From Candidatus Falkowbacteria bacterium (GTDB taxonomy: Bacteria; Patescibacteriota; Patescibacteriia; Patescibacteriales; UBA12465): 63,189 bases of DNA. A model generated the notes under the pieces. It had not been told where the DNA came from and did not search any database. It saw only the letters and a program-made list of their open reading frames with translations. Positions 58,034 to 61,065 of this stretch are shown in pieces; position 1 is the first letter of the stretch; each line of letters starts with the position of its first letter. The stretch spans positions 1-63,189 of the forward strand of contig JAAZJO010000004.1 of NCBI GenBank assembly GCA_012800315.1, given 5' to 3'. A program made the position numbers and the translations under genes.

Positions 58034-58093
58034 TAAATGAAAAACTTTTTATAGTTTTCAAATAAAAGTACATTAACAATTAAAATAAATATA

Positions 58094-59005
58094 ATGAGAA
58101 AGGTACTATTGCTGGTTTTAACCATATTGTCCGCGGCTTACGCCGTGGGGCAGGGCACAAAAAGTGCTAGGCCCTTGGTTGAATACCGAGGGACAACTAT
58201 GGTCTCCGTTTTTGCCGGCGGACACGTCGCGCAAAAAAATGTGAACAACCGGGGTGATTGGTACGGAGTTTATTTGGAGCATTTACCGCTCCAGCTTCTC
58301 ATTTCCGAATATAAACATTTGAACTTGGGCTTAGCAGCCCTAGCAGCAAAAAGTTTATACGAAGGAAATGATCAGGAGCATAAAAACTCCAACACCGATT
58401 ATTCCTTCGGTTTCGGTTTTAGCGGCGGTTTTTATAACTACCGCTTTTCTAAGAATTCTGCCATTTATATTGGCGCCAACTCTTTAATAAAGAGGGGGCA
58501 AGAAATCATAAATGGTAGAACTTCCGAGAGTGCCGGCAGATATCTGGCTGACGGTCAGTACATAATCTGGTCCTCAGAACTGAATATCAACGTCATGAAG
58601 ACGTATGAGTCAGGTTTGAAGAACTGGCCACGTACTCAGTTACGGCTAGTATATCAAAAGCCACTGCGAAATGAACGTGATGCTTTTTGGGATGCTGTGC
58701 CGCTGTCTGAGTCTACAATTTGGGACAAGACAGTGTACATGAGCGAGCTAAAAGCTAGTCTCTATCGCTATGGGAAAAGAGTTATACTAGAACCAAAAGT
58801 TATAGCTGGTTATCATTTCTATGAAGGTGATAATAGCCAGTGGATAATTGCTGGTCTAGAGCTTGCACTAAGGAAGTTTAATTGGGACGACTTTTTGTCT
58901 GTCTCATTCTCTCTAAAACGTCAGGTTGGAAATTATGCTCCAAACTTGAACGAAACCCAATTTCTTTTGGGTGTAAATTTTATGCCTTTTAACTTAAAAA
59001 GGTAG
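58094..59005 (+). CDS. Secreted hypothetical protein, predicted outer-membrane-type beta-barrel; elevated GC
   Basis: Signal peptide, many amphipathic beta-strands, C-terminal QFLLGVNF strand. Confidence 0.5.
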   Translation: MRKVLLLVLTILSAAYAVGQGTKSARPLVEYRGTTMVSVFAGGHVAQKNVNNRGDWYGVYLEHLPLQLLISEYKHLNLGLAALAAKSLYEGNDQEHKNSNTDYSFGFGFSGGFYNYRFSKNSAIYIGANSLIKRGQEIINGRTSESAGRYLADGQYIIWSSELNINVMKTYESGLKNWPRTQLRLVYQKPLRNERDAFWDAVPLSESTIWDKTVYMSELKASLYRYGKRVILEPKVIAGYHFYEGDNSQWIIAGLELALRKFNWDDFLSVSFSLKRQVGNYAPNLNETQFLLGVNFMPFNLKR

Positions 59006-59053
59006 GAGATTGGTTGAAATTAATTGTTAATATGATTGTAAAAAAAATTAGAA

Positions 59054-59818
59054 ATGGAAAAAAATTATTTTAAAAAGGCATTAAATTGCCTCTTTGCCGC
59101 CATTATTGGCGCAGTGATCATCCTGTTAGTAATGATAGGGTTTCTAAGTTACTCTTTCCAGAAGGAGACAAAAAAAGCTCCTGAGGAAGAGGTAGCTGTA
59201 GAGAGTGTTAACACGGTTATAACTTTGGCTGATAGCGTTAATTTACTAAACGCTAAGGTCAATGACCTAAGTAAGGAACTGGAAGAATGCCAGGAGGCAG
59301 CGAAAAAAGTAGTTGCCGTCCCGAAAGCAAAACCAGTAGCAACCCCGACCCCTCCGACCCCACAAAAAGTGGTGGTTGAGCTGGTTCTGAAAAATTCAGA
59401 ACCAGCGGCTCCGACACCGGTTTCTACTCCTAGAGTAGAACAACCAATTGTTCGGTCTGCCGCTCCCGCTCCCGCTCCCGCTCCCCAGCAAGGGAAAGTA
59501 ATTGCTTGCTTCCGTACTAATGGAAGCGGCGATCAGCACTTCCCCCATTATGCGTTGGATCGCGGGGCAAGCGTCGCCAATGCGGTTGACAACGGACAGA
59601 AAGGCTACAACTATGAGCTTAGCCCGGTTGAATCCGTGTCCGGCAGTCTCCCAGGGGTAACATTTAGTGGGGTTTATTTCATCCCCAAGGCGTATTTAGA
59701 AAAATACCTCAACATGTCAGGAGAATCTCTCCGATACGTTGATGTAATCTGCGAAAACGCCTGGGGAGGAGTACGCATGAGTCTCCAAGGAGACTACTAT
59801 GTGTATAACTCCCGCTAG
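59054..59818 (+). CDS. Membrane-anchored protein with coiled coil and Pro-rich stalk; elevated GC
   Basis: TM segment, VNLLNAKVNDLSKELEE coiled coil, PVATPTPPTP and (AP)4, small C-terminal domain. Confidence 0.6.
   Translation: MEKNYFKKALNCLFAAIIGAVIILLVMIGFLSYSFQKETKKAPEEEVAVESVNTVITLADSVNLLNAKVNDLSKELEECQEAAKKVVAVPKAKPVATPTPPTPQKVVVELVLKNSEPAAPTPVSTPRVEQPIVRSAAPAPAPAPQQGKVIACFRTNGSGDQHFPHYALDRGASVANAVDNGQKGYNYELSPVESVSGSLPGVTFSGVYFIPKAYLEKYLNMSGESLRYVDVICENAWGGVRMSLQGDYYVYNSR
59462..59485 (+). repeat. (GCTCCC)4 in-frame tandem repeat
   Basis: Four exact copies, encoding APAPAPAP. Confidence 0.85.
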
Positions 59819-59826
59819 AAAAAAAC

Positions 59827-59858
59827 ACCCTTAGAACTTAGATTCTAAGGGTTTTTTA
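59827..59858 (+). terminator. Rho-independent terminator
   Basis: ACCCTTAGAA-CTTAGA-TTCTAAGGGT followed by a T tract. Confidence 0.85.
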
Positions 59859-59890
59859 TTGACAAATTCTTATAAATATCCCAATACCCC

Positions 59891-59919
59891 TTGACAAATT
59901 ATAGAAAATTGTATATAAT
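59891..59919 (+). promoter_or_regulatory. Consensus sigma70 promoter
   Basis: TTGACA-17-TATAAT. Confidence 0.85.
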
Positions 59920-59939
59920 ATCTTGTTAAATTATTATAT

Positions 59940-61025
59940 ATGTTAATATCTTTTATTGGACAAAAAGGAATCCCAGCTAAAAATGGCGGAGTTGATCGTC
60001 ACGTAGAAAACTTAGCGCGATTTTTAGTGGCAAAAGGGGAGGAGGTTATTGTCTATAATCGTAAAAATTATTTAGAGAATAACAGCACAGAATGGCAGGG
60101 TGTTAAATTGGTTAGTTTACCATTTATTGACCACCAAAATTTAGCGGCCATCACTCATGGATTTTTAGCAACTATTGATGCTATTAAGCGCAAAGTTGAT
60201 GTTATTCATTATCATGGTATTGGTCCCTCTCTGTTAGCTTGGATACCACGTATTTTTGCTCCTAAAATAAAAGTTGTTTCTACTTTACATAGCTTTGATT
60301 ATGGTAATGACAAGTGGAGTGGTTTTGCTAAATTTATGCTTAAACTTGGTGAAGCTAGCATGTGCCGCTTTGCTCATGAAGTTATTGTCTTAACAGAAAC
60401 AATGCGTGATTATTTATTGCAAAGACATGAACGTGAAAGCACTATTATTCCTAATGGCGCTCACATTAAGGTGAATCATGGATCAGATAAATTAAAAGAA
60501 TTTGGCCTGGAGAGTGGAAAATATATTTTAAGTGTTTCCCGACTTATTAGATTAAAAGGTTTGCAATATTTAATTCCTGCTTTTAAAAATATTAAAGGTG
60601 ATGAAAAATTAGTAATTGTCGGTGATGGTGATTATTTACTAGAATTGAAAAAAATAGCTGCTGATGATCAACGTATTATTTTTACAGGCAATCAAACTGG
60701 TGAAACTTTAGAGCAACTTTATACCAATGCTAAATTATTTATTCAATCTTCAGAAATGGAAGGTTTATCTATTTCTTTATTGGAAGCAATGGCTTATGGT
60801 TTACCTTGTTTAGCTAGTGAAATTGTGGCTAATCAGCAAGCAACTGGTGAAGCGGCCATTTATTTTACCTCTAAGGACATTAATGATTTAGAAGAAAAAT
60901 TAAATTATTGTTTAGCTAATCCAGAAAAAATGAATGAAATTGGACGTAGTGGAAAAGAACGAGCAGAGAATATTTTTAATTGGGAAAAAATTTCTGCTGA
61001 TGCTTTAAAAATTTATAAAAAATAA
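59940..61025 (+). CDS. Glycosyltransferase family 4
   Basis: GQKGIPAKNGGVDRHV, SSEMEGLSISLLEAM. Confidence 0.9.
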   Translation: MLISFIGQKGIPAKNGGVDRHVENLARFLVAKGEEVIVYNRKNYLENNSTEWQGVKLVSLPFIDHQNLAAITHGFLATIDAIKRKVDVIHYHGIGPSLLAWIPRIFAPKIKVVSTLHSFDYGNDKWSGFAKFMLKLGEASMCRFAHEVIVLTETMRDYLLQRHERESTIIPNGAHIKVNHGSDKLKEFGLESGKYILSVSRLIRLKGLQYLIPAFKNIKGDEKLVIVGDGDYLLELKKIAADDQRIIFTGNQTGETLEQLYTNAKLFIQSSEMEGLSISLLEAMAYGLPCLASEIVANQQATGEAAIYFTSKDINDLEEKLNYCLANPEKMNEIGRSGKERAENIFNWEKISADALKIYKK

Positions 61026-61065
61026 AATATAAATTTAGTTCATTAACAATTTAATAAGTAAAAAA

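Follow-up and report, generated by a model that had tools for sequence, protein, structure and literature searches.

In a 63,189-nucleotide (nt) stretch of DNA from an ultra-small bacterium, a Candidatus Falkowbacteria bacterium (contig JAAZJO010000004.1; hereafter the window), two genes that we name A and D are each preceded by a conserved, strand-specific leader word that is identical to the boxA of ribosomal RNA (rRNA) genes and that is tied to a particular class of genes. boxA is an RNA signal normally found in front of rRNA genes. The two window copies, AGTACATTAACAATT at 58067-58081 and AGTTCATTAACAATT at 61037-61051, are both on the forward strand and end 12 and 14 nt 5′ of the ATGs of A and D, respectively. 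We consider it somewhat probable, judging from the sequences, that the boxA words are loaded by Nus factors on the nascent messenger RNA (mRNA), which would give rRNA-type, terminator-resistant elongation through A and its neighbor B and through D. The original prediction, made from the letters of the window, had described a boxA-like leader in front of two blocks of high GC (guanine plus cytosine) content, being either an expression signal or the scar of a gene-capture system. Its boxA likeness, the leader signal and the link with atypical GC content were supported, nusB being present; the scar, the capture system and the recent insertion of the blocks were not.

Leader words and the rRNA boxA of the lineage

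Both words contain the 10-mer CATTAACAAT, which ends at 58080 and 61050, i.e. 13 and 15 nt before the ATGs at 58094 and 61066, as originally predicted; the predicted 8/12 and 9/12 matches to the Escherichia coli boxA UGCUCUUUAACA were also counted correctly. This is the E. coli consensus, that of Bacillus subtilis being AUGAUCUUUGAAA (PMC13753749). The pattern AGTWCATTAACAATT had two exact matches in the window against 0.00 expected from 100 dinucleotide shuffles, and these were the only exact matches in the whole genome (633,746 bp, 17 contigs). Allowing one mismatch brought the genome total to four sites. One of the additional sites, C5:31002, is in the 23S rRNA leader, and the other, C15:1394, lies 12 nt 5′ of another GC-rich orphan gene. 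The bare 10-mer is also present once inside a coding region, on the opposite strand (29054-29063). That the two leaders resemble each other by chance could be argued from their AT-richness and from the three window matches, versus 1.24 expected, that appear when two mismatches are allowed. However, the exact matches, the conservation of the word at orthologous positions with diverged flanks and the strand bias in a sister genome (37 sense versus 2 antisense matches; both described below) have already refuted this explanation, to which we give practically no weight.

The 23S (C5:31154-34518) and 16S (C7:30186-31667) rRNA genes of this genome are unlinked. The 23S leader carries AGTCCATTAACAATT at position -152, and the 16S leader TGAACCTTAAAAATT at -148, which scored 9.7 with a matrix built from A and D leaders only. 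Across the genus and the order, 16 of the 17 23S leaders had their best match to this A/D matrix at a fixed place (-79 to -173), and most 16S genes also had a similar word upstream. When 23S leaders were simply aligned, without bias from the matrix, the block GAGTCCNTTAACAATTC was among the most conserved ones, between two conserved hairpins. In the reverse test, a matrix based on rRNA leaders only ranked A (19.2) and D (16.5) at the top of the 545 gene leaders of the genome. With the window excluded, the rRNA matrix gave a median of 11.6 for the leaders of A and D orthologues versus 1.3 for those of neighboring genes (p = 6e-9, uncorrected for relatedness). By the sequence comparison, the window motifs are copies of the lineage's own boxA. 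The likeness to boxA is thus meaningful, the motif being equal to the boxA of the organism's own rRNA leaders.

Some other features were observed near rRNA genes. In a complete sister genome, G005 (977 kb, GC 0.40), the rRNA genes at 653950-656955 and 735801-737283 place 16S and 23S ~80 kb apart, each with its own promoter and boxA. The nusB gene lies ~2 kb upstream of the 23S gene. The 23S leader of the genome studied here (C5:30831-31020; L137) contains a sigma-70 promoter, a conserved short ATG-led stretch and a conserved terminator-like hairpin (AACCGC-N5-GCGG plus T7), which is located 12 nt 5′ of boxA and could be an attenuator or a boxB analogue. A boxA-like word, [AC]GN[TA]CNTT[AG]ACAAA, is present 7-32 nt before the 5′ end of the transfer-messenger RNA in nearly all genus members (C5:23663-23677; L137 1164-1178, L138-L160). 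It overlaps the last smpB codons, R-(S/T)-L-T-K, and the Thr codon is ACA in every clear match. We dropped it as boxA evidence because it is inseparable from the coding constraint on the SmpB tail.

The features surrounding the two window copies are as follows (GC3, GC content at third codon positions; UTR, untranslated region; aa, amino acids):

58006..58033, forward strand: sigma-70 promoter of the A-B unit (TTGACA, 16-nt spacer, TATAAT; 12/12)
58042..58057, forward strand: small AU-rich 5′ hairpin at the predicted transcript start, 10 nt before boxA (fold weak, not better than shuffles)
58067..58081, forward strand: boxA copy 1, AGTACATTAACAATT, in the ~53-nt 5′ UTR of A (rRNA-only matrix score 19.2)
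58094..59005, forward strand: gene A, 303 aa (GC 0.43, GC3 0.44)
59054..59818, forward strand: gene B, 254 aa (GC 0.48)
59827..59852, forward strand: intrinsic terminator closing the A-B unit (10-11 bp stem plus T-run; fold z -4.36)
59891..59919, forward strand: sigma-70 promoter of the glycosyltransferase-D unit (12/12)
59940..61025, forward strand: GT4 glycosyltransferase, first gene of the second unit (Pfam Glycos_transf_1 and Glyco_transf_4; native GC 0.32)
61037..61051, forward strand: boxA copy 2, AGTTCATTAACAATT, in the 40-nt spacer between the glycosyltransferase gene and D (rRNA-only matrix score 16.5)
61066..62208, forward strand: gene D, 380 aa (GC 0.40)
62224..62254, no strand assigned: terminator hairpin between the convergent D and corA (fold z -3.71)

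As read from the sequence, the first unit is composed of promoter, hairpin, boxA, A, B and terminator, and the second of promoter, glycosyltransferase gene, boxA, D and terminator. Both blocks close in strong hairpin plus U-tract terminators (fold z -4.4 and -3.7), as had been claimed. The 48-nt gap between A and B contains neither a boxA nor a promoter of B's own that we could find, from which we infer that B is co-transcribed with A. Similarly, no promoter was found between the glycosyltransferase gene and D, and no terminator between the promoter at 59891-59919 and copy 2. Both words are predicted to be on the transcribed strand 3′ of a promoter, and hence in the nascent RNA. In relatives, an equivalent promoter is present upstream of the A orthologues, a stronger hairpin (GATAATC-T6-GATTATC) takes the place of the weak one, and the glycosyltransferase is 62-73% identical. 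The order 5′ hairpin then boxA is also that of B. subtilis rrn leaders (PMC13753749).

Two other kinds of leader signal were rejected. The sequence TTAACA within the word resembles a -35 box, yet no -10 box was found 16-18 nt 3′ of either window copy, and the word sits 3′ of clear sigma-70 promoters. A riboswitch-like structure was discarded since the leaders fold no better than shuffled sequences.

Conservation and composition of the A-B-D locus

The gene order X-Wzz-A-B-GT-D-CorA (GT, glycosyltransferase) is syntenic in ~18 related genomes, comprising at least 14 species of the same genus and one metagenome relative. Identity to the window proteins is only 28-42% for the orthologues of A, B and D, against 55-67% for those of the neighbors. 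A, B and D have a GC content of 0.43, 0.48 and 0.40, respectively, against a genome gene mean of 0.35, and a GC3 of 0.41-0.46 against 0.26 +/- 0.05; genes following both motifs are thus GC-richer than the rest of the genome, as first proposed. They are also GC-richer than their neighbors in 19 out of 19 loci, on average by 6.9 points for GC and 11 for GC3 (Wilcoxon p = 4e-6), and the GC excess over the conserved neighbors spans 4-13 points across these loci. The synteny, the divergence in place and the GC excess in 19 loci indicate that the blocks are not recent insertions. Their atypical composition is old and has been maintained without amelioration; selection, biased gene conversion and the mode of transcription are candidate causes.

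The word itself is kept at orthologous positions, whereas the leader around it has diverged in sequence. In front of A orthologues its consensus is cGAACATTAACAAt, which is usually located 13-19 nt from the ATG, downstream of promoter and hairpin; 13 of the 14 score at least 8 with the rRNA matrix. The same threshold is reached before 12 of the 16 D-type genes of relatives, mostly by AATTCTTTAACAATT. The D-orthologue consensus, aATTCTTTAACAATT, differs by one base from the E. coli rrn sequence CTCTTTAACAATT, as does AATTCTTTAACAATT. Before the D orthologues of relatives the word is located 28-60 nt from the start codon, often with a hairpin bearing a Shine-Dalgarno (SD) sequence in between. 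An SD sequence within a small GC hairpin between boxA and ATG, e.g. cgggtatGGAGGcccg, was also observed in many leaders of A, B-like and D orthologues (L021, L022, L024, L026-L030, L033). SD-like words precede only 5-7% of the genes genome-wide, so that the absence of an SD sequence at A and D is not special.

The view that the two blocks are recent foreign insertions is not supported, given the syntenic locus in ~18 genomes and the retention of the motif before A and D orthologues. A variant of it holds that the word is the insertion scar, or recombination site, of a cassette system that captured and imported both GC-rich blocks. The motif-gene-terminator layout would suit such a system, as would the presence at the locus, in some relatives, of additional B- and D-like paralogues that have leaders of their own, and the overwhelmingly accessory nature of the motif-led genes of G005, some with acquired-looking cargo (see below). 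However, in all 19 loci A, B and D keep their positions with respect to the conserved flanking genes and have diverged there in place, so that the variable occupancy of integron-like cassettes is not seen. The syntenic loci recovered included no empty site (species without A or D matches, such as G007, which has neither, are outside this comparison). Near the locus we likewise saw no direct repeat and no integrase, a genome-wide integrase search not having been made. In addition, rRNA genes, which are no cassettes, have the word in their leaders. Extra support is not provided by the A family either, which is rare and whose one examined distant member is in a similar locus. We therefore regard capture as very improbable.

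The products of A, B and D are predicted to belong to the cell envelope. Protein A has a signal peptide, and its structure model (predicted local distance difference test score, pLDDT, 80.9) is a 12-14-strand barrel of the outer-membrane type, for which autotransporter beta-domains, OmpG and FadL were the best matches in the PDB. It is predicted with good confidence to be an outer-membrane-type transmembrane beta-barrel. The Patescibacteria genus to which A belongs is generally taken to be single-membrane. A profile search among 1.84 billion representatives recovered only 66 clusters of the A family, all unnamed metagenome proteins, and allowed no donor lineage to be identified; the one distant member that we examined is encoded in a similar low-GC polysaccharide locus. 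Protein B consists of an N-terminal membrane helix, a Pro/Ala-rich linker and a C-terminal domain. Protein D is a lipoprotein with lipobox LVAC and acidic residues after the Cys (CERVDF; CNYVEFE and CEYVE in relatives). Its model (pLDDT 75.7) displays tandem Ig/FnIII-like beta-sandwich domains; the proteins that match its fold are Ig-like arrays, among them surface lipoproteins of Bacteroides that bind glycans or B12. An NCBI record labelled "Patescibacteria group bacterium" contains a D homologue of 49% identity, and a search for related loci in genome contigs with D gave no match. Neither Pfam nor NCBIfam gave a match for A, B, D or the other GC-rich orphans.

The class of boxA-led genes

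Within this genome, strong leader words are enriched before genes of atypical composition, as had been expected. With the A/D matrix at a threshold of 11, GC3 outliers make up 4 of the 11 genes with a match versus 8 of the 534 others (Fisher p = 4e-5); with the rRNA matrix at a threshold of 10, they make up 3 of 5 versus 12 of 540 (Fisher p = 1.6e-4). Other GC3-rich orphans have weaker boxA-like words, and a Pfam domain was found in none of the seven searched. The PhoH-like gene leader at C1:6456 lacks C5 of the word and was not counted. The third-best leader copy of the genome, AGTTCATTAAAAATT, is positioned 12 nt before the ATG and after a TATAAT box of the gene at C15:1394-2002 (L136). This gene encodes a 193-aa P-loop orphan without Pfam match and has a GC3 of 0.50, the highest of any credible gene.

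In G005, the rRNA matrix had 37 sense-strand leader matches versus 2 antisense ones, and 23 versus 1 with a stricter cut. The postulated dedicated leader signal is thus supported by its strand specificity. All matches are located 5-41 nt before the ATG, and those with a visible promoter lie 3′ of it, 0-60 nt after the -10 box. The motif-led genes more often encode a hydrophobic N-terminus (42% versus 18%, p = 5e-4), have a slightly higher GC3 (0.410 versus 0.385, p = 1.7e-4) and rarely have a homologue in the genome studied here (6/40 versus 64% of the others, p = 6e-10), at least one of these 40 genes being a false positive caused by a similar -35 box. The motif in G005 hence mostly marks accessory, often secreted genes.

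Terminator-like hairpins inside motif-led genes numbered 1.93 versus 0.56 per kb in the genome studied here, a 3.4-fold difference (p = 0.004, n = 5 genes); the corresponding values for G005 were 1.09 and 0.86 per kb (p = 0.06).

Some individual G005 genes are worth describing. The gene at 552518-553858 (L092:12518-13858, reverse strand) is boxA-led and encodes a 446-aa secreted protein with a Por_Secre_tail domain (35 bits, above cut-off). This C-terminal sorting domain of type IX secretion is a hallmark of Bacteroidota. Other boxA-led genes encode purine-synthesis enzymes (PurL-, PurC-, PurN- and PurF-like). Both the purine-synthesis genes and the cargo with the type IX secretion tail look horizontally acquired. 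In addition, boxA-led genes of G005 (L065-L113; e.g. 87336, 144698, 461878, 637653 and 888446) often contain a second word, AACCAAAAA, between boxA and ATG, and their start context is (A/G)TC-ATG in 28% of cases versus 3% for other genes.

Nus factors and the function of the word

Positions G2, C5, U6 and U8 of boxA (E. coli/lambda numbering) are specific NusB/NusE contacts or have mutant phenotypes (PMC3177189). Both window copies contain G2, C5, U7, U8, A9, A10, C11 and A12, and have A at position 6; they thus carry the contact bases save that position. In the rRNA matrix the columns G2, C5, U7, U8, A10, A12 and A13 are invariant, position 9 is mostly A and sometimes G, and columns 3, 4 and 6 are variable.

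The original prediction had proposed a check for nusB, and the gene is present (C5:28464-28976). Its product is a canonical NusB (84 bits to that of Thermotoga maritima) that has kept the Phe stacking on U8 and has Asp at the position of Aquifex Glu81, as in T. maritima NusB. NusB is encoded in 23 of 25 relatives. NusG corresponds to the single PF02357 match of the genome (C3:9213-9521), which excludes a specialized NusG paralogue of the RfaH, UpxY or LoaP type. S10 is assumed to be universal. Autoregulation of nusB was considered and rejected: AGGCCGTTAAAAAAT, 4 nt before nusB, scores 15.5 with the rRNA matrix, but it is absent in 20 relatives and lies within the coding end of the upstream gene, which is probably rpmF/L32.

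Our favored model is the following. Copy 1 would be transcribed from the consensus sigma-70 promoter within the 5′ UTR of the A-B operon, and copy 2 within the spacer that separates the glycosyltransferase gene from D. On emergence from RNA polymerase, the word would be bound as single-stranded RNA by NusB-S10 (NusE) which, with NusG and NusA, would convert the polymerase to an rRNA-type elongation complex that resists pausing and termination independently of a following ribosome. Transcription would in this way be carried through the GC-rich, hairpin-prone and atypically coded A-B and D genes up to the closing terminators. NusB-S10 binding and the polymerase conversion are the steps that we infer from sequence. 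The rrn complex has been reported to interfere with intrinsic termination (PMC13753749). In cells without Rho, such a complex would probably be of benefit by withstanding pauses and fortuitous intrinsic terminators in GC-rich genes within a U-rich transcriptome, for which the denser internal terminator-like hairpins may offer a rationale.

A number of observations weigh against this model. Rho (TIGR00767) was not detected above the cut-off of 509 in any of 25 genomes, with only weak matches of 17-52 bits, and SuhB (inositol-monophosphatase family) was not found in this genome, so that both the canonical target of the E. coli complex and one of its canonical subunits are missing. The strongest of the weak Rho matches (460-490-aa frames) are probably related P-loop ATPases such as F1 subunits. 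The 16S leader contains the weaker copy of the word, and G2 is lost in many D orthologues (AATTCTTTAACAATT). Position 6 is A in the two window copies, and a U-to-G transversion at this position abolishes boxA function in lambda and E. coli (PMC3177189), yet the lineage's rRNA boxA is itself variable there. The word before nusB is not conserved and hence provides no autoregulation signature. The words end as little as 12-14 nt from the start codons, where they could serve translational control equally well. Finally, the seed sites of the matrices had been chosen by eye or with the reciprocal matrix, the genes are simple open reading frame calls, and the related genomes are not independent samples. 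As a separate observation, the genome studied here lacks even the weak Rho matches of ATP-synthase level, of which most relatives have two each, and it may be without F-type ATPase.

The main rival explanation is that NusB-S10 binds boxA for translational control, gating or blocking 30S loading and so tying the synthesis of envelope proteins to the free NusB/S10 pool, that is, to the status of ribosome building, as for E. coli suhB. In suhB, translation is repressed by a boxA located 6 nt from the SD sequence, and the same type of repression acts on a Citrobacter toxin gene (PMC5725501). Apart from these precedents, the short distance of the words to the ATGs in the window, and typically also in A orthologues, favors this explanation. 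So do the position of copy 2 in mid-operon right before D, suited to gene-specific control, and the absence of Rho, without which the classical need for antitermination is missing. However, the word is 28-60 nt from the D start in relatives, often with an SD hairpin in between, the distance in G005 varies from 5 to 41 nt, and no Nus-factor gene has a conserved boxA. Moreover, repression in E. coli is completed by Rho, which is missing here. We consider translational control of this type unlikely. A translational enhancer that pairs with 16S rRNA was rejected, the complementarity being no better than that of shuffled words.

Another explanation is that the word merely resembles boxA and is read by another factor, such as a lineage-specific RNA-binding protein, an RNase that processes rRNA leaders and mRNAs, or a DNA-binding regulator with an asymmetric site. 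It would be in line with the freedom at positions 3, 4 and 6 and with the frequent loss of G2 before D orthologues, and the core TTAACA differs by a single base from the local -35 box TTGACA, a similarity that leads to false matrix matches at promoters. On the other hand, the conserved block found where boxA is canonically placed in 23S and 16S leaders is this same word, which is strongly strand-specific and has no dyad symmetry. Its distance of 0-60 nt from the promoter is unlike that of an operator, neither copy is followed by a -10 box at promoter spacing, and complementarity to 16S rRNA is not unusual. This makes another reader improbable, and loading by Nus factors remains our preferred explanation.

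Comparison with known systems and significance

boxA together with the Nus complex is textbook rRNA machinery, whose accepted purpose is to block Rho. The situation described here resembles the rrn boxA complex (NusB, NusE/S10, NusA, NusG, SuhB and S4) in that the same word is present in the organism's own 23S and 16S leaders, in that the window copies are predicted to be on the transcribed strand 3′ of a sigma-70 promoter, in that copy 1 follows a hairpin as in B. subtilis rrn leaders, and in that NusB and NusG are encoded. It differs in that the word heads protein genes, one copy being in mid-operon, at 12-14 nt from the start codon, whereas the rRNA copies are ~150 nt from the mature rRNA end, and in that Rho and SuhB are absent and position 6 is free. 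A complex of the E. coli type, which acts against Rho and contains SuhB, is thus not what is found here.

That protein genes and CRISPR arrays can be preceded by boxA is established for gamma-proteobacteria (PMC5725501, PMC13753749). In suhB and in Citrobacter koseri CKO_00699 (Baniulyte et al. 2017, PMC5725501), as here, boxA is less than 50 nt from the start of a non-ribosomal gene, which implies regulation by the Nus complex beyond rRNA. Those cases are single genes, often with autoregulation of a Nus factor and with repression completed by Rho (PMC5725501), whereas here no Nus factor is a target and a class of accessory, GC3-rich envelope genes (~4 in this genome, ~37 leaders in the sister genome) is concerned in the absence of Rho. 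The lambda nut site (boxA plus boxB, with N) likewise has boxA by a hairpin in an mRNA leader and acts on genes up to terminators. However, we see no N-like protein and no phage context, and the hairpin is upstream of boxA, the rrn order, while it is downstream in nut. RfaH with ops (JUMPStart), UpxY and LoaP also involve a leader signal for processive elongation before surface or accessory clusters, and the locus described here is of the polysaccharide type (Wzz, GT4). These systems require a specialized NusG paralogue and another DNA or RNA word, e.g. GGCGGTAG, whereas here there is one NusG and the word is boxA, not ops. In literature searches directed at this point, we found no paper linking boxA to Patescibacteria or to a GC-rich accessory gene class.

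That the same leader heads a class of accessory, fast-evolving and often secreted genes argues for a second, rRNA-like expression channel rather than an insertion scar. More tentatively, and with clear reservations, we suggest that the genus may have extended the NusB/S10-boxA system from rRNA to a dedicated channel for GC3-rich, often acquired or fast-evolving envelope genes. This would be a "xenogeneic licensing", the opposite of silencing by Rho or H-NS, in cells without Rho, and, if true, it may explain how a non-native composition is kept over long evolutionary times.

A lineage without Rho and SuhB has thus kept boxA before predicted surface, membrane and accessory genes of non-native codon composition, which suggests that a Rho-less lineage puts the Nus antitermination machinery to a hitherto undescribed use. 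If NusB-S10 truly loads on these words, this would reveal a role of the Nus complex where Rho is absent. It would also provide a simple sequence marker for a variable, probably host-interaction, gene set of Patescibacteria, and a testable link between the mode of transcription and long-term atypical GC content.

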